From assembly GCA_032126435.1 (NCBI GenBank), contig JAQBBE010000052.1, positions 1 to 41,644 of the forward strand: a stretch of 41,644 bases of DNA, written 5' to 3'. Under the pieces are notes generated by a model. The model saw only the letters and a program-made list of their open reading frames with translations, did no database searches and was not told the origin of the DNA. The position numbers were made by a program, and so were the translations under genes. This document shows, one piece after another, positions 2,752 to 11,271 of the stretch (position 1 is its first letter; each line of letters starts with the position of its first letter). This DNA comes from Desulfobacterales bacterium (GTDB taxonomy: Bacteria > Desulfobacterota > Desulfobacteria > Desulfobacterales > UBA11574).

Positions 2752-2772
2752 ACCGGACAGGAACTCTTGACC

Positions 2773-3930
2773 ATGCGCAGTGAATTTTTACCATTTTCGC
2801 GGCCGTCCATCAGCCGGCAAGAAATAGATGCGGTCATCGAGGTATTAACCTCCGGATGGATAACCACCGGAGAGAAAAGTGCCCAATTCGAGCAAAAGAT
2901 TTGCGACTATACCGGCTGCGCCGGTGCTGTCGCCCTATGTTCAGCGACCGGCGGAATGCACCTGTTGCTCAAGGCCTTAGACATCGGACCGGGCGATGAG
3001 GTCATCACCCCGTCAATGACCTGGGTGTCCACAGTAAACCTGACCGTTCTGGCCGGAGCCACGCCCGTTTTCGTGGATATCGACAGAGAAACTCTGATGA
3101 TGAGGGCCGAATCGCTGGAAGGGAAAATCACCCCGCGAACCCGGCTCATCATACCGGTTCACTTTGCCGGCGCCGCGGCAGACATGGATGTCATCCGCCA
3201 AACCGTATCCGCATATTCGGATCAGGACATCTTTATTGCCGAAGATGCCGCTCACGCTATCGGTACGGAATACAAGGGAAAACGGGTGGGCCGGCAGGGC
3301 ACGTCTATTTTTTCCTTCCATCCCATTAAGAATATTACCACCGGCGAAGGCGGAATGTTCTGTTCGGATGATGAGAAGCTCATTAACCGGGTGCGACAAT
3401 TAAAATTTCACGGCCTGGGTGTGGATGCTTATGATCGACAGACCCAGAGTCGGTCTCCCCAGGCGGAAGTACTGGAGCCCGGCTATAAATATAATATGAC
3501 TGACATCTCAGCAGTACTGGGCTTGGGACAGTTGTCGCGACTTCAAGAATTCAATCGGAAACGCGCGGAATTGGCTTCACTATACCTGGAAAAGATATCC
3601 GGAATCCACGAAATATTACCCCTTGGCATTCCGTCCTATCAAATGAAACATTCCTGGCATCTGTTCATTGTCCGCCTGGATATCGAAAAAGCGGGAATGG
3701 ATCGCGATGAATTTATGCAAGAATTAAAACGGAGAAATATCGGTACGGGAATTCATTTCCGCGCCGTCCATCTCCAAAAATATTACACCGAGGCCATGCA
3801 AACCCGTCGAGGAATGTTGCCCAATACCGAATGGAATTCGGACCGGATCGTATCGTTGCCTCTGTTTCCGGACATGACTGAAAAGGATATCGACTCGGTG
3901 ATAGAAGCCATAAAGGAGGTTTTGAGCTAA
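2773..3930 (+). CDS. arnB: UDP-4-amino-4-deoxy-L-arabinose aminotransferase (DegT/DnrJ family)
   Basis: FLPFSRP, EDAAHA, SFHPIKNITTGEGG (PLP lysine), LKFHGLGVDAYDR; arn operon context; ATG 2773 chosen, TTG 2767 possible. Confidence 0.95.
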   Translation: MRSEFLPFSRPSISRQEIDAVIEVLTSGWITTGEKSAQFEQKICDYTGCAGAVALCSATGGMHLLLKALDIGPGDEVITPSMTWVSTVNLTVLAGATPVFVDIDRETLMMRAESLEGKITPRTRLIIPVHFAGAAADMDVIRQTVSAYSDQDIFIAEDAAHAIGTEYKGKRVGRQGTSIFSFHPIKNITTGEGGMFCSDDEKLINRVRQLKFHGLGVDAYDRQTQSRSPQAEVLEPGYKYNMTDISAVLGLGQLSRLQEFNRKRAELASLYLEKISGIHEILPLGIPSYQMKHSWHLFIVRLDIEKAGMDRDEFMQELKRRNIGTGIHFRAVHLQKYYTEAMQTRRGMLPNTEWNSDRIVSLPLFPDMTEKDIDSVIEAIKEVLS

Positions 3931-3933
3931 ACC

Positions 3934-4920
3934 ATGACAACGGATATTTCTATTGTAATTCCGGTATTCAACGAAGAAGACAATCTTAAAGAGCTTCTGG
4001 ATCGATGCCTCGATGCCTGTAACAAGATGGATAAGTCATTCGAAATCATCCTGGTTGATGACGGGAGCTCTGACCGGTCGGCGGAAATCATCGCCCGGAC
4101 GGCCCGAGAAAATCCAGGAAAGGTAATCGGTGTATGTTTAAACCGTAATTACGGCCAACACGCGGCGGTAATGGCCGGATTTAAAGAGTCCAGGGGTGAT
4201 ATTGTTGTTACGCTTGATGCTGACCTGCAGAACCCGCCCGAGGAAATACCAAGGCTGGTCGAATGTGTGGACAAAGGTTGCGACGTGGTGGGAAGCGTAC
4301 GAATGAATAGAAAGGATACCCTCTTTAGAAGGATAGCTTCTGCCATTATTAACAAAGCGGTACAGAAATCGACGGGTGTGATGATGCATGACTATGGCTG
4401 CATGTTACGGGCCTATCGCCGTCATATTGTTGATGCTATGCTGATGTGCAAGGAGCATAGCACGTTTATTCCGATTCTTGCCAATAGTTTTGCCCGTACC
4501 ACCACAGAAATAGAAGTAAAACATGAAGCGCGCAGACAGGGGGAATCGAAATACAATTTTATGAAGCTCGTGATGCTGCAATTCGATCTGTTAACCAGTA
4601 TGACAACCTTTCCACTTCGTCTTCTTAGTATACTTGGAGGAATTGTCTCTTTAGCAGGAATCGGTTTTGGTTTTTTCCTTTTAATCATGCGTGTCATTTA
4701 CGGAGCCAAATGGGCGGCTGAAGGTGTTTTTACGCTTTTTGCGATATTATTTATTTTTGTAGGTGCTCAGTTTATCGGAATGGGACTGCTTGGGGAATAT
4801 ATAGGCAGAATTTACTATGATGTCAGAGCCCGTCCCCGTTACTTTGTGCAACGGGTTACCGGCAAAAGCAACTTTGAGTCAAAAAAAACTTACCCGGATA
4901 ACCAGAACTCCGGCCGGTAA
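3934..4920 (+). CDS. arnC: Undecaprenyl-phosphate 4-deoxy-4-formamido-L-arabinose transferase (GT2)
   Basis: [35 protein letters not shown], two C-terminal TM helices. Confidence 0.95.
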
Positions 4921-4940: not shown

Positions 4941-5139
4941 TAAACGTCTCTGAAATTCTACAACTTCTCGAAATAACGAGTCTTTTAATGGTAATCTGTT
5001 TATGCCATCAGAATGGAATATTGGAATATTGGAATCAGGGCGGAAATAAAACCATTTTAATTGTAAAAAACTCCTTCAAACCCATCATTCCATTACTCCA
5101 TCATTCCATTATTCCAATTAGGGCGAAGCCCCTAAGTTC
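4941..5139 (+). repeat. Octamer-armed intergenic repeat element, family A, copy A2
   Basis: Starts TAAACGTCTC, ends GGGCGAAGCCC-CTAAGTTC; 5037-5119 equals the reverse complement of 11077-11158 except one A indel. Confidence 0.9.
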
Positions 5140-5180
5140 AAATCATCCGCCATCAAGGCGCAGACACACAAAGGATAACA

Positions 5181-7187
5181 ATGAAAGCGATCGTATTGGC
5201 ATACCACAACATCGGTTGTATCGGAATTGAAGCACTGCTTAAAAACGGATATGAAATTGCGGCAGTTTTTACACATAATGACAACCCAAATGAAAATATC
5301 TGGTTTAACTCGGTGGCCGAACTTGCTTCAGGTCATGGAATTCCGGTTTTCGCGCCCGAAGACATAAATCATCCTTTATGGATACAAAAAATTATTGAAT
5401 TAGATCCGGATATTCTTTTTTCATTTTACTACCGTAATATGGTCACTTCAGAAATCCTGGATATTCCTTCTTCAGGCTGTTTGAATCTGCACGGTTCTTT
5501 TTTGCCCAAATACCGCGGGCGATGCCCCATCAACTGGGTGCTGGTCAACGGGGAGACCGAAACCGGAATAACCCTTCATTACATGACTCCTCGGGCCGAT
5601 GACGGCGATATTGTATGTCAGAAAAAGATTGCGATATCCGATACGGATAACGCACACACACTTCATGAAAAAGCCGCAAAGACTGCAACCGATGTATTAA
5701 ACGAAATTCTACCGAAGTTACGGGAAGGAACGGCTCCCCGCATTCCTCAGGATCATTCTAAGGCTTCTTATTTTGGAGCCCGCAGTGCCAAGGACGGTGA
5801 AATCGACTGGAATCAAGATGCCGTTGCAATAAGGAATCTGGTGCGGGCGGTATCCCGGCCCTATCCCGGGGCTTCCAGCTATTTGGGTAACCGAAAATGT
5901 ATATTCTGGTCCGTTAGCGCGGCAAAAGGAAACAGCGAAAGGCCGGGTACTATTCTTTCTAAGGTTCCGTTAGTGATTGCCTGCGGCAAAGGAGCCATAC
6001 AGGTTGATTTTGGCCAGTTCGAAGGTGGGATATTCATGAGCGGCTTACAGCTTGCTGAAGAAATGCACCTTGTTGCGGGCATGAAATTTGGCAAACATAA
6101 AGGGAGCCGGGTTGAAACGGCAAGAAAAAAACAGGTGCTTATCCTTGGGGTTGACGGATTCATAGGCAACCATCTTACTGAACGGCTTTTAGATAGTGGA
6201 AAATATGAAGTTCACGGTATGGACTTAGGGGCACATTCCATTCAGCGTTTCGTGGGCGTTCCGGGGTTCCATTTTTCCGAAGGGGATATTTCCATCCATC
6301 GTGAATGGATAGAATATCATGTAAGAAAGTGCGATATAGTTCTTCCTCTTGTTGCCATTGCAACACCTGTTGAATACATCCGTAACCCTTTGAAGGTATT
6401 CGAACTCGATTTTGAAGAAAACCTCCACATTGTCCGCTACTGTGTCAAATACGGCAAAAGAATACTGTTCCCTTCTACCTCGGAAGTATATGGAATGTGC
6501 CATGATCCGAAATTCAATGAAGAAAACTCTCAATTAGTATTGGGACCCATCCGAAACCAGCGCTGGATTTATTCCTGCTGCAAGCAATTACTTGACAGGG
6601 TCATCTGGGCCTACGGCGCAAAAGAGGGTTTGCAGTTTACTCTGTTCAGGCCTTTTAACTGGATCGGCCCACGGCTTGACAGCCTGGCATCCGCCCGCAT
6701 CGGTAGTTCTCGTGCTATTACCCAGTTGATTTTAAATCTTACCGATGGGACTCCGATCCAGCTCGTTGACGGCGGCAGCCAAAAACGATGTTTTACTGAT
6801 GTAAAAGATGGTGTTGAATGTCTGTACAGGATTATTGAAAACCCGAACGGTTGTTGCGACGGCAAGATTATCAACATCGGAAATCCAGACAATGAAGCGA
6901 GCATCAAGGACCTGGCCGACATGCTAGTGGAAAAATTTCATCAACATCCTTTGTGCAAAGAATTCCCTCCCTTTGCAGGTATCAGCAAGGTGGAAAGCAA
7001 AACTTTTTACGGGTCAGGTTATGAGGATGTAAAACACAGAAAACCTTGTATCGATAATGCCCGACGTCTTTTAAACTGGGAACCCAAGATTAATATCGAG
7101 CAATCGGTTGAAGAAACCCTTGATTTCTTTCTAAAAGAAGCGATCCGGACGGGAGAATGCGGCACCACCCGACCCTGTGACGTGTAG
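5181..7187 (+). CDS. arnA: Bifunctional UDP-glucuronate decarboxylase / UDP-L-Ara4N formyltransferase
   Basis: N-terminal formyltransferase ([18 protein letters not shown]) plus C-terminal SDR ([22 protein letters not shown]); AAGGA RBS. Confidence 0.97.
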
Positions 7188-7263
7188 TTAAAACGATGAT
7201 CAAAAATTTGGCAAAGCAATATCTTAAACTCGATTCCCGGAACCCGGATAAACCGGAAAAAAA

Positions 7264-7466
7264 CAAATTACAAACAAATCGCAATAGCCGAAATTCAAAA
7301 TTCGAAACCTTATGATCTTGAAGAAAGTAAACGAATTGAAAAAGATATCTTCATCAATACCGGAAAAATCGAAATAGTTTAGGTCATTGGTATTTGGAAT
7401 TTGAGATTTGTTTGTAATTTGATGCTTGTGATTTGGGATTTATTTGTAATTTGGTGCTTGGAATTT
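7264..7466 (+). repeat. Heptamer-armed cassette, family B, copy B1
   Basis: Perfect 17-bp inverted repeat CAAATTACAAACAAATC (7264-7280) / GATTTGTTTGTAATTTG (7405-7421); degenerate ATTTGGN-type heptamer tandem running to the arnD ATG. Confidence 0.85.
7284..7377 (+). pseudogene. Internally deleted remnant of a probable four-helix-bundle (23S rRNA-IVP-like) gene
   Basis: 7284-7328 reads (ATA)AEIQNSKPYDLEES; after a frame change 7333-7377 reads ELKKISSSIPEKSK*; these resemble my recollection of the N- and C-termini of that family, not search-verified. Confidence 0.6.
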
Positions 7467-8360
7467 ATGAAGACAGGTTTACGTATTGACGTTGACACAT
7501 TCAGGGGCACCAAAATTGGTGTGCCGAATTTGTGCAGGATTCTTGCCGGTTACTCTATACGAGCATCATTCTTTTTTTCCGTTGGTCCGGATAATATGGG
7601 GCGTCACCTGTGGCGTCTGCTGCGCCCCTCTTTTTTTAAAAAAATGCTGCGCTCAAAAGCGGCAAGCTTGTATGGCTGGGATATTCTGCTTAAAGGGACT
7701 TTTCTTCCGGGGCCGGTTATCGGAAAAAGACTGGCCGATATAATACGTTCTGCCGCGAACCAGGGTCACGAAATCGGTTTGCACGCCTGGGATCATCACG
7801 CCTGGCAGGTCCACATCGACAGGATGGATCAGCAGTCCATAAGGCATCACCTTCGCAAAGGGGTTGATCAGCTTGCACCTATTCTCGGCAAGATTCCGGT
7901 TTGCTCGGCTTCCCCAGCATGGAAATGTAATAATCTTGTACTAATGGAAAAACAGAAATTCCCTTTTTTTTATAACAGTGATTGCAGGGGCGAAAGTATT
8001 TTTCTCCCATTGGTTGATGGGAAGAAACTCTCGCAACCCCAGATTCCCGTGACATTGCCTACCTATGATGAAGTAATCGGAAGAAAAGGAGTGTCGGATA
8101 GTAATTACAATGAATATATATTGTCGCTGATGAAACCGGAGAAATTGAATGTCCTGACTATTCATGCAGAAGTCGAGGGGATATTCTGTGCCGAAATGTT
8201 CGAACACTTTTTAAAGACAGCCCTGTCAAGAAAAATATCCTTTATCCCTCTGGGAACATTTCTACAGGAACAAATACCCACAGACTATGCTACCCTTGTG
8301 CCTGGAAAGATTCGCGGCCGAGAAGGATGGGTTGCATACCAGACACAAGATAATACTTGA
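7467..8360 (+). CDS. arnD: 4-deoxy-4-formamido-L-arabinose-phosphoundecaprenol deformylase
   Basis: MKTGLRIDVDTFRGT, SVGPDNMGRHLWRL, GLHAWDH, TIHAEVEG; the ORF-track extension 7401-7466 is repeat-derived. Confidence 0.95.
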   Translation: MKTGLRIDVDTFRGTKIGVPNLCRILAGYSIRASFFFSVGPDNMGRHLWRLLRPSFFKKMLRSKAASLYGWDILLKGTFLPGPVIGKRLADIIRSAANQGHEIGLHAWDHHAWQVHIDRMDQQSIRHHLRKGVDQLAPILGKIPVCSASPAWKCNNLVLMEKQKFPFFYNSDCRGESIFLPLVDGKKLSQPQIPVTLPTYDEVIGRKGVSDSNYNEYILSLMKPEKLNVLTIHAEVEGIFCAEMFEHFLKTALSRKISFIPLGTFLQEQIPTDYATLVPGKIRGREGWVAYQTQDNT

Positions 8361-8393
8361 TAAAATTCTGTATTAGATTTAAAATTGATGGCT

Positions 8394-8414
8394 TCGTAGA
8401 AAGTCTTTTGCGAG
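8394..8414 (+). repeat. Collapsed palindromic repeat, family C, copy 1
   Basis: TCGTAGAAAGTCTTTTGCGAG, 19/21 identical to the reverse complement of 38699-38719. Confidence 0.55.
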
Positions 8415-8457
8415 TGACTTTGACCATTTTGAGAAAATTCAAAGGTCCGTTTCTCAA

Positions 8458-8844
8458 CTAAACGACATTTGCTACAGGCTCGGTATGGATACAATATCAG
8501 TGGGAAATCTCTGTGGATTTACAATTTAAGAAAAAGGTTGATTTTAAGATAGAATACGGAGATGTGAATGCCATAGCCGGTTTGCTCAAAAAAATCGCAA
8601 CCAGGCAGGGCATTGGTAATATTCTGGCTCGGGGATTAGACATGCGGCCCAGATCTGGAACATGGAAGACATGGCTGTGCATGTTAAAGGACTTGAACTG
8701 CCCGGTTATGATCCCAGAGTTCTTAAGGGATGCGGGCTTGCCTTTGCCACCGCCGACAGTGGCGCATGCCATTTAAGGGCGCCGTTCCATAATCCTGAGA
8801 TAAAAGGCGTGATCGCCCCGGAGATTATCAAAAGGAAAGCCGAA
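8458..8844 (+). pseudogene. Aldehyde:ferredoxin oxidoreductase (AOR family) internal fragment, disrupted
   Basis: Three pieces broken by a stop and frameshifts: LNDICYRLGMDTISVGNLCGFTI*, IEYGDVNAIAGLLKKIATRQGIGNILARG, RHAAQIWNMEDMAVHVKGLELPGYDPRVLKGCGLAFATADSGACHLRA. Confidence 0.85.
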
Positions 8845-8964
8845 AATAAAATTTTAGAAAAAATTCTTTCTCAGAAAAAACCGTTGTGTCCCCACTACGG
8901 TAAGGAAATGAACATATGGGAGGTTCCCCCTTTTTCCTTCTGTGACGATCTCGGCTTGGGTAAA
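8845..8964 (+). pseudogene. Fragment of an unrelated small zinc-ribbon-like protein fused in frame to the AOR fragment
   Basis: KILEKILSQKKPLCPHYGKEMNIWEVPPFSFCDDLGLG; CPHY looks like a decayed CxxC; not AOR-like. Confidence 0.45.
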
Positions 8965-9118
8965 ATTTTCACGTTGACTTGGGGCGTCCATACTTCTCGC
9001 CGTTGTGGGCAGCTTGTCAGCTGTCCAATTCTGCTATCCTGCAGAATTGCCCTTGGCCTTGAACGAAATTGAGCATTTTTCAAGGTCTCAATGGTGCTGA
9101 AAAAAGGCTTGATACTCA

Positions 9119-9808
9119 ATGAGCACAACACACACTAAAACTTATAATTCATATCATTTTGGATCACCATCAAATATAGCCGACCAGCAACTGAAACAAC
9201 TCATTAGATTCTTTAATTTACCAAAAAATAGCGTTAATTCAGCCCTCGGCGGAAGAACCTCCATTACAGTTACACAGCTTAACGGCATAGGATCTGTAGT
9301 TATTAAATATTATAGACGGGGAGGAGTCATTCGATATCTGATCAAAAAACGGTATCTTAAATGTGGAAAAACGCGTTGCCAGATTGAATATGAACTGTTG
9401 CAGAAGGTCAGAAGTTTAGGCATAAATGCCCCTGAGCCGGTTGCCTTTGCTTATAGAGGCCGCCTGTTCTATCAATGTTGGCTGGTAACCCGAGAGATCC
9501 AAGATCATCAAACACTTGTCCAAATAAGTCGTTCAAATGAAGAACAGGCCCGTATGGCAATGAAAGCAGTCGTCAAGCAAGTTTCAATGCTCATAAAAAA
9601 TAAAATTTTACATGCCGATTTACATCCCGGCAATGTAATAGTGGACAATCAAAACCAAGTTTACATTCTTGATTTTGACAAGGGGTGTGTTTTTCACGGA
9701 GATAAAAATGCGCTGAGAACTCGATACCTGCGTCGCTGGAATCGGGCAATACAAAAGCATGGGCTACCGGAGATGCTTAGTGAAGTTAATGCGTTAAACT
9801 CTCTTTAA
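9119..9808 (+). CDS. Kdo kinase-like LPS kinase (Kdo/WaaP family)
   Basis: VIKYYRRGG, HADLHPGNVIV, ILDFDKG, KdkA-type motifs. Confidence 0.85.
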   Translation: MSTTHTKTYNSYHFGSPSNIADQQLKQLIRFFNLPKNSVNSALGGRTSITVTQLNGIGSVVIKYYRRGGVIRYLIKKRYLKCGKTRCQIEYELLQKVRSLGINAPEPVAFAYRGRLFYQCWLVTREIQDHQTLVQISRSNEEQARMAMKAVVKQVSMLIKNKILHADLHPGNVIVDNQNQVYILDFDKGCVFHGDKNALRTRYLRRWNRAIQKHGLPEMLSEVNALNSL

Positions 9809-9810
9809 CC

Positions 9811-9891
9811 ATTACAAATAGAAATGGTTTGGGTTATTGGTATTTGGAATTTACGATTTGTTTGGAATTTGATGCTTGAGATTTGGGATTT
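9811..9891 (+). repeat. Heptamer-armed cassette, family B, shorter copy B2
   Basis: 9821-9891 matches 7371-7441 at 64/71 positions; preceded by ATTACAAA, a stub of the B1 left arm. Confidence 0.85.
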
Positions 9892-9905
9892 CAAAAAATT
9901 CTTAA

Positions 9906-10979
9906 ATGTTTATTAGTTCCGTTATGGATACACCCACTTTTAAAATATTCTCTTCAGCACCATCAATCCTCATCATTCTGATGGGGTCTATAGGAGATGT
10001 GGCGCGAGGTCTGTGCCTGGTGTCACATATTAAAAACAATCTGCCGGGAAGCAGGGTAACATGGCTTGTAGAGCCAACGTGCTCGGAAGTGGTCTGTCTA
10101 CACCCACGCATTGACAAAATGATCGTTTTTAACAGACCCAGACATATGTTAGGAATACGAGATCTGTATAAAGACTTATCCCGAGAACACTTCGACATCA
10201 CTCTGGATCTTCAGCGTCACTTAAAGAGCGGCTTTTTCTCGTTTCTTTCCGGAGCGAAAAGACGAATCGGCTTTAATCGCCGTAATTCAGGGGAATTTAA
10301 CTGGATCTTTAATAACGAATACATCCCCTATGTCAGCGATGAGCTTGAGTTGCCCAAATTGCATCATTATCTTAAATTTACAGAATACCTGGGGTTATCT
10401 GAGCCCGCATCCTTGGACTTCGGTTTTTCCTGCCTTGATGAAAAATCTAATCTGCCGGATATTGTTGCTAAAATAAGTAAACCCTTTATCGCTGTTGTAA
10501 TGGGATCATCCTGGGAATCTAAAGACTGGTTCTTTGAAGGATACTATCGACTGGTAAAAAATATTCTTTCTTCAATGAAAGAGGCGGTTGTACTGCTTGG
10601 TGACGGCTCACAAGTATCATCTGCAACAAAACTGTGCCAAAAAGTTGGCTCACATGAATTAATCAATCTTGTGGGAAAAACGTCGATTCCTGAACTTGTG
10701 GCCGTGCTTAAAGCCGCTGCTGCCGGTTTAGGACCGGATTCGGGGCCGGGTCATTTGGCAGCAGCGGTGGGAACTCCCTATGTGTCTCTTTTCGGTCCAA
10801 CACCTCCGAAACGGGCAGCGCCTTATAAATGTGAACACCTTGTCGTTCAATCCGGGGTAAGCTGTGTTTCCTGTTATAAAAAGAAATGCCCTGACCTCGA
10901 CAGATTATGTATGCAGCGTATCAGCGTTGAATCGGTCCAGGAAAAACTTTCTATAGCACTTGGAACTGTTGGTGACTAA
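9906..10979 (+). CDS. Glycosyltransferase family 9 (LPS heptosyltransferase-like)
   Basis: MGSIGDV, TWLVE, LDLQ, DSGPGHLAAAVGTPYVSLFGPT, C-terminal Cys cluster; start may be 9924. Confidence 0.9.
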   Translation: MFISSVMDTPTFKIFSSAPSILIILMGSIGDVARGLCLVSHIKNNLPGSRVTWLVEPTCSEVVCLHPRIDKMIVFNRPRHMLGIRDLYKDLSREHFDITLDLQRHLKSGFFSFLSGAKRRIGFNRRNSGEFNWIFNNEYIPYVSDELELPKLHHYLKFTEYLGLSEPASLDFGFSCLDEKSNLPDIVAKISKPFIAVVMGSSWESKDWFFEGYYRLVKNILSSMKEAVVLLGDGSQVSSATKLCQKVGSHELINLVGKTSIPELVAVLKAAAAGLGPDSGPGHLAAAVGTPYVSLFGPTPPKRAAPYKCEHLVVQSGVSCVSCYKKKCPDLDRLCMQRISVESVQEKLSIALGTVGD

Positions 10980-11056: not shown

Positions 11057-11271
11057 AACTTAGGGCTCTTCGCCCCAATTGGAATAATGGAATGATGGAG
11101 TAATGGAATGATGGGTTTGAAGGAGTTTTTTACAATTAAAATGGTTTATTTCCGCCCTTGCTCCCAATATTCCAGCATTTCAATATTCCATTCTTCCATT
11201 TTGATGGCATAAACAGGTTGCTATTGATAAACTGGTATTTTCGATAAGTTGTAGAATTTTCGAGACGTTTA
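11057..11271 (-). repeat. Octamer-armed intergenic repeat element, family A, copy A3 (inverted relative to A2)
   Basis: Reverse complement runs TAAACGTCTC...GGGGCGAAGAGCCCTAAGTT; octamer array TGGAATAA TGGAATGA TGGAGTAA TGGAATGA at 11080-11111. Confidence 0.9.

Follow-up and report, generated by a model that had tools for sequence, protein, structure and literature searches.

Intervening sequences of the 23S rRNA (Leptospira, Coxiella, Brucella) have complementary termini that enclose a reading frame, with a protein of the S23p / 23S_rRNA_IVP family encoded in the loop. The account given for Coxiella describes a decaying S23p frame with direct repeats immediately upstream of its start codon, a terminal stem of 28 bp and excision by RNase III, and it cites the idea of Ralph and McClelland from 1993 that these sequences are mobile and that their reading frame serves mobility (PMC4990558). 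In this study, we report an element of related layout from a Desulfobacterales bacterium (lineage UBA11574; assembly GCA_032126435.1), located in contig JAQBBE010000052.1, whose 41,644 nucleotides (positions 1 to 41,644 of the forward strand) are called the window. The segment 7188-7466 of the window is an insertion between the genes arnA and arnD. At its core (about 7236-7466) lies a non-coding copy, shortened by an internal deletion, from a family of small cassettes. Judged by the comparison of genomes given below, this family is mobile and horizontally shared, consists of a gene between mirrored heptamer arrays and shows presence or absence at given sites among close relatives. As in the 23S rRNA intervening sequences, complementary termini enclose a frame for a four-helix-bundle protein of the same family. 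The cassette differs from them in that it lies in the gap of a protein-coding operon and not in an rRNA helix, that its arms are tandem heptamer arrays and that its gene-less derivatives have multiplied. The family appears to be an undescribed and widespread variant of the intervening-sequence type of element.

Other known systems resemble the cassette in part. Bacterial MITEs (miniature inverted-repeat transposable elements) are, like the window copy of about 180-230 nt, short, non-coding, multi-copy, bounded by terminal inverted repeats and internally deleted from a longer element, but the parent of the cassette has no transposase and no target-site duplication could be shown. The passages searched in a review of prokaryotic MITEs mention no heptamer-armed or four-helix-bundle type (PMC10969869). 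Diversity-generating retroelements (DGRs) contain Avd, with which the predicted cassette protein shares its fold, and PF05635 has been described as Avd-like (PMC10053308). Unlike a DGR, the cassette has no adjacent reverse transcriptase, template repeat or variable repeat, and its own genome has no DGR-type enzyme. Among repetitive extragenic palindromic sequences and bacterial interspersed mosaic elements (REP/BIME), REPs are single palindromes of 20-40 nt, and in REPtrons the gene of a REP-associated tyrosine transposase (RAYT) lies between inverted REPs. REP/BIME sequences are intergenic, palindromic, multi-copy and lineage-specific as the cassettes are, and REPtrons likewise hold a small gene between inverted copies of its own repeats, which multiply without the gene. 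In contrast, the cassette gene encodes a four-helix bundle without an HUH/Y1 motif, its arms are tandem heptamers, it is shared across phyla, and the one RAYT-like gene of the genome is flanked by another heptamer family (TAACCCG type) and not by the cassette's repeats. The STRR repeats (short tandemly repeated repetitive sequences) of cyanobacteria are likewise intergenic tandem heptamers. For Xanthomonas, about 186 GGGAATC arrays with 70-75 convergent pairs and possible stem-loops have been reported, and for Nostoc heptamer arrays of GGGGA(C/T)T (PMC4692102). These are intergenic tandem heptamers like the arms of the cassettes; PMC4692102 gives no general association with mobile elements, and the passages searched in it contain no link to a four-helix-bundle gene. 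In the full-text literature searched, with most subscription journals and supplements outside it, no paper linked four-helix-bundle genes to mirrored heptamer arrays or called gene-less shells of this kind mobile.

All parts of the window copy are given on the forward strand. The outer module (7236-7263), recognized in alignments of sister copies, is a small CCGG...CCGG hairpin motif followed by a run of A; its reverse complement is found at the right end of L032, L037, L091-L093, L097, L100, L102 and L103, while L029 has the module on the left, as in the window copy. The left arm (7264-7283) consists of A-rich degenerate heptamers, of which 7264-7280 form a perfect 17-nt repeat, and the array runs on into the gene remnant, to about 7310, as the A-rich mirror of the right arm. 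The right arm (7387-7466) is a T-rich array of units ending in ATTT that directly abuts the start codon of arnD. The repeat search paired 7264-7284 with 7401-7421 (21 nt, 95% complementary, inner 17 nt perfect) and gave a second right-arm partner at 7433-7453 (90% complementary). Both partners lie in a 32-nt duplication, for which TRF returned a higher-order period of 32 with 1.9 copies and 90% matches at 7399-7460. At up to two mismatches the 17-mer occurs four times in the window against 0.06 expected, and none of 100 shuffles reached four. The fourth site (9855-9871) is part of a second, more reduced copy of the same repeat (9816-9891), which comprises right arm and gene tail, is 89% identical to 7366-7441 and has as neighbours a gene of the Kdo-kinase family and one for a GT9 heptosyltransferase. 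Summed word depth in four metagenome and metatranscriptome runs was 196-1904 at 7404-7447 and mostly 2-60 over arnA and arnD; therefore, the right-arm repeat is very common. No known RNA family was recognized in an Rfam scan of 6500-10500, where the one match was at chance level (IS009, 18.5 bits against 117, E = 0.28).

Between the arms lie two remnants of a gene. The N-terminal remnant (7284-7328, translated from 7284) reads IAEIQNSKPYDLEES, with the start codon ATG changed to ATA, and the C-terminal remnant (7330-7377, frame from 7282) reads NELKKISSSIPEKSK up to a stop codon at 7375-7377, one frame off the former. The deletion junction between them (7326-7332), defined by the alignment of 32 copies and by full-length sequence, is out of frame and marks the loss of about 280 nt of the gene; the window copy has one further small change there relative to the sister consensus. 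An earlier inspection of the window from its letters alone (hereafter the sequence-only reading) had pointed out the 17-bp inverted repeat, the degenerate heptamer arrays and both peptides, and all were located by repeat search and translation. It took the peptides for the two ends of a gene for a four-helix-bundle protein of about 120 amino acids (aa), and intact genes now bear this out.

A DNA search of 40 relatives and the own genome gave matches to the element in 31 of the 41 genomes. One of them (L035) extends upstream into a longer reading frame, in a gene that is frameshifted, and with this frame as query a protein search recovered three genes, L056 (in a genome of the same genus), L057 and L076, all intact and encoding 122, 122 and 123 aa. 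They begin with MTKIPNNKPVYDLEERTF and end with EANELKKIFSSIIEKSK, and both window peptides match these ends. The same arms enclose them, with an A-rich array of the CAAATNN type running into the start codon and its T-rich mirror array just past the stop codon. Their scores against TIGR02436 were 84.7, 83.6 and 87.0 bits, respectively, at a cut-off of 24. In the alignment, sister copies have ATGACC where the window copy has ATAGCC, as the supposed start-codon mutation implied. With its 15 + 15 residues the window remnant is too short and is not among the 10 PF05635 matches of the own genome, and its membership in TIGR02436 / PF05635 follows from its collinearity with the full-length genes. The intact form of the cassette measures about 0.5-0.6 kb, has its start codon and first eight or so codons inside the A-rich array and in many copies carries a short outer inverted terminus. 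It contains no recombinase or transposase, the 122-aa four-helix-bundle gene being the only gene of the full-length parent.

A profile of 19 relatives of the protein matched PDB entry 2RLD with E = 1.4e-31. The AlphaFold model predicts four helices (pLDDT 91), with residues 1-9, which are encoded by the array, disordered. Its nearest structures in Foldseek were 2RLD (TM 0.78/0.88) and 2GSC (TM 0.79/0.86), then Avd 4DWL (TM 0.70/0.77, rmsd 2.4 over 108 columns), in agreement, as far as the model goes, with the fold that had been proposed.

The alignment comprised the window copy and 31 sister copies from 12 other genomes (32 in total). The out-of-frame junction between the ...DLEE(R) and ...(E)ANELKK codons was common to 29 of the 31 sister copies, the two exceptions being L040, with a larger deletion, and L104, which has diverged. 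The sister copies are 80-92% identical to the window copy, their flanks are unrelated and their loci differ; therefore, the deletion predates the arrival at arnA-arnD. According to these alignments, the shell of about 180 nt is a MITE-like derivative that multiplied after the deletion and arrived already empty. The proposal of a small mobile unit without transposase, reduced to a shell, is thus maintained, while decay in place, which the sequence-only reading had envisaged, is not. For 11 of the 32 copies, the most similar copy was found within the same genome. The own genome has 12 loci of the same arm family, mostly even more reduced, and no intact gene of the window copy's clade. The orthologous copies L027 and L028 differ by one heptamer (7 nt) gained or lost in one arm.

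Most of the arm-family copies of the own genome (C86, C193, C50, C269, C20, two in C63, C277, C189 and C21) were seen inside a longer conserved frame, with a GGACCAGG...GGGGATTTGCTTTG segment on the left and a GACACAAAACTCCAAGGCAGAGCC hairpin followed by GGACCAGGTTTTT on the right. The full-length L057 lies in the same frame, which may represent a second kind of outer terminus or else a composite element. In addition, small G+C-rich palindromes of the GCCTGCCCGC...GCGGGCAGGC type and others are nested in arms or loops of heptamer elements (C277:8690-8720, C21:1290-1330, and in relatives L030, L036, L095, L088-L090, L098 and L099).

ArnD was found in 14 of the 41 genomes. In all nine relatives with arnA upstream of arnD, the gap was about 17-20 nt or less, against 279 nt here; in a tenth genome (G015), arnD lies behind a different gene. 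In the public DNA run X12, one contig lacks the insert; it matches 445 nt of arnA at about 97% identity and 264 nt of arnD with 4 mismatches, and 49 other letters connect 7167 to 7466 in it. On this match it is an empty allele in a close population, and the empty arnA-arnD sites that had been looked for in relatives are found. Six loci showed the reverse situation, with the element in a relative and a short or different spacer in the own genome, at flanks 75-97% identical (filled and empty, respectively: L027/L028 and C299, L035 and C187, L037 and C284, L032 and C292, L026 and C89, L085 and C324).

The arms accompany the gene. A PF05635 search of the own genome gave 10 matches at 8 loci and one likely false hit, with a single full-length gene, at C71. 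Heptamer-type arrays adjoin every one of the 8 loci, with both arms present at 6, and the units differ between loci (CAAGGGT type, CGAATAA type and a 9-mer of the CATTTTAGG type). At C88:5520-5900 (L001), a remnant with CAAGGGT arms stops after about 45 residues and is followed, between the arms, by a short frame starting MYYTYVLYSKKDDDFYTGF, which presumably resembles the start of a GIY-YIG nuclease domain. Among the 22 full-length genes of relatives, 19 had flanks more complementary to each other than any of 30 shuffles (exceptions L077, L061 and L066), and the repeat unit, which the two sides mirror, is particular to each clade of the four-helix-bundle protein. These genomes hold at least seven such families of units side by side.

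The cassette is also shared between phyla. A survey with one genome per species and one query protein, covering this clade only, gave 299 relatives. The best 80 of them, at 70-100% protein identity, are labelled Desulfobacterales, Cloacimonadota, Bacteroidota, Ignavibacteria, Calditrichota, KSB1, WOR-3, Nitrospira and others, of which some phylum labels may be binning errors. At the 61 loci of this clade with complete flanks, the 100 nt upstream of the gene contained 196 CAAAY and 47 RTTTG motifs, and the 100 nt downstream 251 RTTTG and 30 CAAAY. A strict strand-motif criterion applied per locus was passed by 35 of the 61 and failed by 26. These strand-specific counts were used in place of an inverted-repeat score against mononucleotide shuffles, which exceeded the shuffle maximum by more than 4 at 33 of 76 loci and is insensitive for this low-complexity clade.

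Distant members of the family gave tblastn matches in 30 plasmid records, and the four loci inspected, on cyanobacterial, Chloroflexota and Bacteroidota plasmids, all carry heptamer-type arrays. The mirror arrangement was clear in three and partial in the fourth, from Bernardetia. Mirrored arrays of AATCCCC and AATCGTA units lie between drmD and an MmeI-type gene in Planktothrix, and mirrored arrays of the GATGAAG unit between a helicase and a methylase gene in Chlorohelix, while in Anabaena a more complex layout with the GTAAAAA unit lies between cas2 and cas1. At three of the plasmid loci (L187, L189 and L190) the family member was thus seen in the gap of a defence operon (cas2/cas1, helicase/methylase, drmD/MmeI-type). 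In this regard, 18 genes of the family have been recorded within cas loci, for example between cmr3 and cmr2 (PMC3936711), and the family is listed among CRISPR-linked genes (PMC10910872). Such published scores of 'CRISPR association' may reflect an insertion preference and not a function. Phage records contained 2 weak matches among 50,697, and no close relatives were found in viral contigs.

Of the 37 loci where the upstream neighbour could be scored, 36 had it in the same orientation as the gene; for the downstream neighbour this held in 36 of 42, and no divergent arrangement was seen among them. No promoter-like or terminator-like site was detected in 7000-7600. In the RNA library X10, a contig with 1 mismatch spans 7110-7453, from arnA into the right arm. 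Neither the run X16 nor the small-share RNA runs yielded a contig that crosses the element, and no conclusion is drawn from this.

Taking these data as a whole, we consider it probable that the window copy is a dead copy of a cassette with a hairpin as its core, expression by read-through and spread in trans. The functional core would be the long hairpin or cruciform into which the two arrays fold and not the array sequence, because the unit varies with the protein clade whereas the mirror relation of the sides is always kept. The gene would have no promoter of its own and would be expressed by read-through from the upstream host gene, which would explain the strict co-orientation. Spread would be driven in trans, as suggested by the multiplication of gene-less shells. 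As trans factor we would most readily propose the Avd-like four-helix-bundle protein, presumably a pentamer, that an intact sister copy encodes; in this putative role it would recognize its own arrays and recruit a host nuclease or a replication-repair function at intergenic hairpins. Given that the own genome lacks an intact gene of the clade, the arnA-arnD copy would be an inactive leftover whose sole contribution to the arn transcript is an imperfect stem. As a broader proposal, which we put forward tentatively and as something short of an even chance, the cassettes could represent a phylum-spanning class of mobile elements without transposase, in which the pentameric protein recognizes its own arrays and drives or licenses the spread of cassettes and shells.

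It must be noted that several observations weigh against a dead mobile cassette spread in this way. The seven filled-versus-empty comparisons gave no clean target-site duplication or sharp boundary, the spacers being replaced and not interrupted. In the best pair (flanks 95-97% identical), 348 nt replace a 28-nt spacer, with only an imperfect 15-nt direct repeat (10/15). A motif search for the termini yielded 11 element instances with both outer termini and no consistent flanking duplication. Some empty sites (C89, C324) hold another heptamer hairpin family, which fits exchange at hot spots no less than transposition. All the genomes are metagenome bins, in which repeats are prone to misassembly. 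The four-helix-bundle fold has no known nuclease motif. Co-orientation is weaker for the derivative copies (15 against 5), and the orientation bias could come from selection for expression and not from the insertion mechanism. The X10 contig is compatible with co-transcription, and may also stem from DNA in that library. Folded as RNA, 7240-7470 gives -47.2 kcal/mol (z = -1.62 against dinucleotide shuffles, 13 of 200 shuffles being as good), a measure that is uninformative for such A-rich/U-rich sequence, so the reality of the element rests on the repeat statistics and the sister copies. Pairing was better on the sense strand in 31 of 61 loci and on the antisense strand in 30 (p = 0.71), and in 22 of 32 short copies (p = 0.077); therefore, an RNA stem is not favoured over a DNA hairpin, selection for an RNA stem is not shown, and the mRNA stem-loop that the sequence-only reading had proposed finds no support over the DNA form. 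Within the clade, cognate arms paired only slightly better than exchanged ones (-33.55 against -31.59 kcal/mol; 34 of 5000 permutations were as low).

These movements could have other drivers. In one explanation, which we regard as rather doubtful, the heptamer hairpins would be REP/BIME-like and be moved in trans, as single-strand hairpins, by a REP-associated Y1/HUH transposase, with the gene as a passenger of the loop. The own genome indeed has one Y1_Tnp gene (44.3 bits, cut-off 23), which bears a DnaA-C-like tail and is similar to REP-associated tyrosine transposases, at 63.8 bits and thus under their cut-off of 80. It lies immediately downstream of a TAACCCG-type array, and heptamer arrays crowd its contig; hairpins of equal stability on the two strands would fit the DNA substrate of such an enzyme, as would the multiplication of gene-less shells. 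However, the gene is single and its adjoining arrays are of a different unit, while at least seven unit families coexist, and the joint occurrence of protein clade and repeat unit, together with a whole cassette common to phyla, would be unexpected for a passenger. The missing target duplication, the replaced spacers and the presence of different hairpin families at the same intergenic site in different genomes would also suit a process without transposition, in which hairpin arrays grow by slippage at hot spots downstream of genes and cassettes move by homologous recombination or gene conversion via their arms. Single-heptamer gains or losses between orthologous copies point in the same direction, as do nested layouts such as the full-length L035 beside a CACGAAG-type array that also occupies the empty site. 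This process requires arms of the same family at the target, but the empty counterparts have none; moreover, it would hardly place a 180-nt derivative with one junction at many unrelated loci, or spread cassettes across phyla, and we judge it unlikely.

The resemblance to Avd, the obligatory partner of the DGR reverse transcriptase, raises the question of an RNA-borne route, by which the read-through transcript would fold, RNase III would free the stem-loop, and a reverse transcriptase with an Avd-like helper would restore DNA copies. Strict co-orientation with the upstream gene would agree with it, and so would the family members in 23S rRNA intervening sequences that are described as excised by RNase III (PMC4990558). 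Nevertheless, a group II intron maturase (334.6 bits to TIGR04416) is the sole reverse transcriptase of the own genome, which yielded no DGR enzyme, the arms have no sense-strand excess of pairing that tolerates G-U, and no poly-A or other marks of retro-copies were seen, which makes this route quite improbable. As to a hairpin that evolved locally as a regulator of arnD (attenuator, stabilizer or processing site) without a mobile history, its position next to the arnD start and the RNA-library contig that covers it from arnA to 7453 would speak for it. It is left with practically no chance, being excluded by the short spacers of the nine relatives' arn operons, by sister copies 80-92% identical at unrelated loci in at least 12 other genomes and by the empty contig of about 97% identity; recognizable gene remnants lie inside it, and it has no terminator-like site.

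To our knowledge, no role outside DGRs is known for the four-helix-bundle family, which is large and has had solved structures since 2006-2007; bacterial genomes have long been noted for the unexplained oddity of paired heptamer arrays; and the 23S intervening sequences have been suspected to be mobile since 1993 without evidence. The data presented here tie these observations together. They comprise the presence/absence polymorphisms, a propagating deletion derivative, the sharing across phyla and a strict orientation rule. The function of the protein can now be addressed by asking whether it binds its own arrays and whether it mobilizes shells. If a protein-driven class of this kind were true, the 23S intervening sequences and many paired heptamer arrays (Xanthomonas, cyanobacteria, Desulfobacterales) would have a common origin, and the reported 'association' of the family with CRISPR-Cas and other defence operons would also be accounted for. 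In practice, such arrays break metagenome assemblies, and insertions in operons may alter mRNA processing.

With respect to the 23S rRNA itself, no large insert was found in the 4 genomes in which the gene was recovered (of 5 searched), with at most about 135 nt beyond the 2925-position model. Two different 23S genes occur in the bin (C300:4070-7065 and C207:26247-28624). The full-length match of C300 reaches 1844.5 bits, against 2897-2990 bits for the full-length genes of relatives, and C300 may be a contaminant contig. The Y1 gene mentioned above (L186, C129:9900-12800) encodes a RAYT-like protein of 351 aa directly downstream of TAACCCG/GATAACC arrays, and its contig is full of AACCCGT/AACTCGC arrays. 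This gene may form a REPtron-like unit with heptamer arrays as its 'REPs'.

The host operon is also on the forward strand. The upstream gene arnA (5181-7187, stop codon 7185-7187) is of the formyltransferase plus UDP-sugar epimerase/decarboxylase type (Pfam Formyl_trans_N, Formyl_trans_C and Epimerase), and it is preceded by a DegT aminotransferase gene (2767-3930) and a GT2 glycosyltransferase gene (3934-4920), both assigned by Pfam. The downstream gene arnD (7467-8360) encodes a polysaccharide deacetylase (Pfam Polysacc_deac_1), and its start codon aligns with that of relatives. The leading part of the 279-nt inserted segment (7188-7235) has no counterpart in the spacer of the nine relatives, according to the junction comparison. 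The last seven or so codons of arnA (7168-7187) are strongly unlike those of relatives L013-L020, which are otherwise 84-87% identical over the last 200 residues; on this alignment, the 3' end of arnA beside the insert is remodelled or fast-evolving. Three further hairpins lie in the window at 600-740, 5014-5116 (between arnC and arnA) and 11080-11200. They belong to another family, made of 8-mer arrays of the TGGAATAA type mirrored by CCATTATT, which brings the repeat hairpins of the arn region alone to at least four. The segments 5037-5140 and 11060-11160 are mutually reverse complementary far past the 8-mer arrays, and several dozen pairs of the TGGAATAA/CCATTATT type were found genome-wide with TRF.

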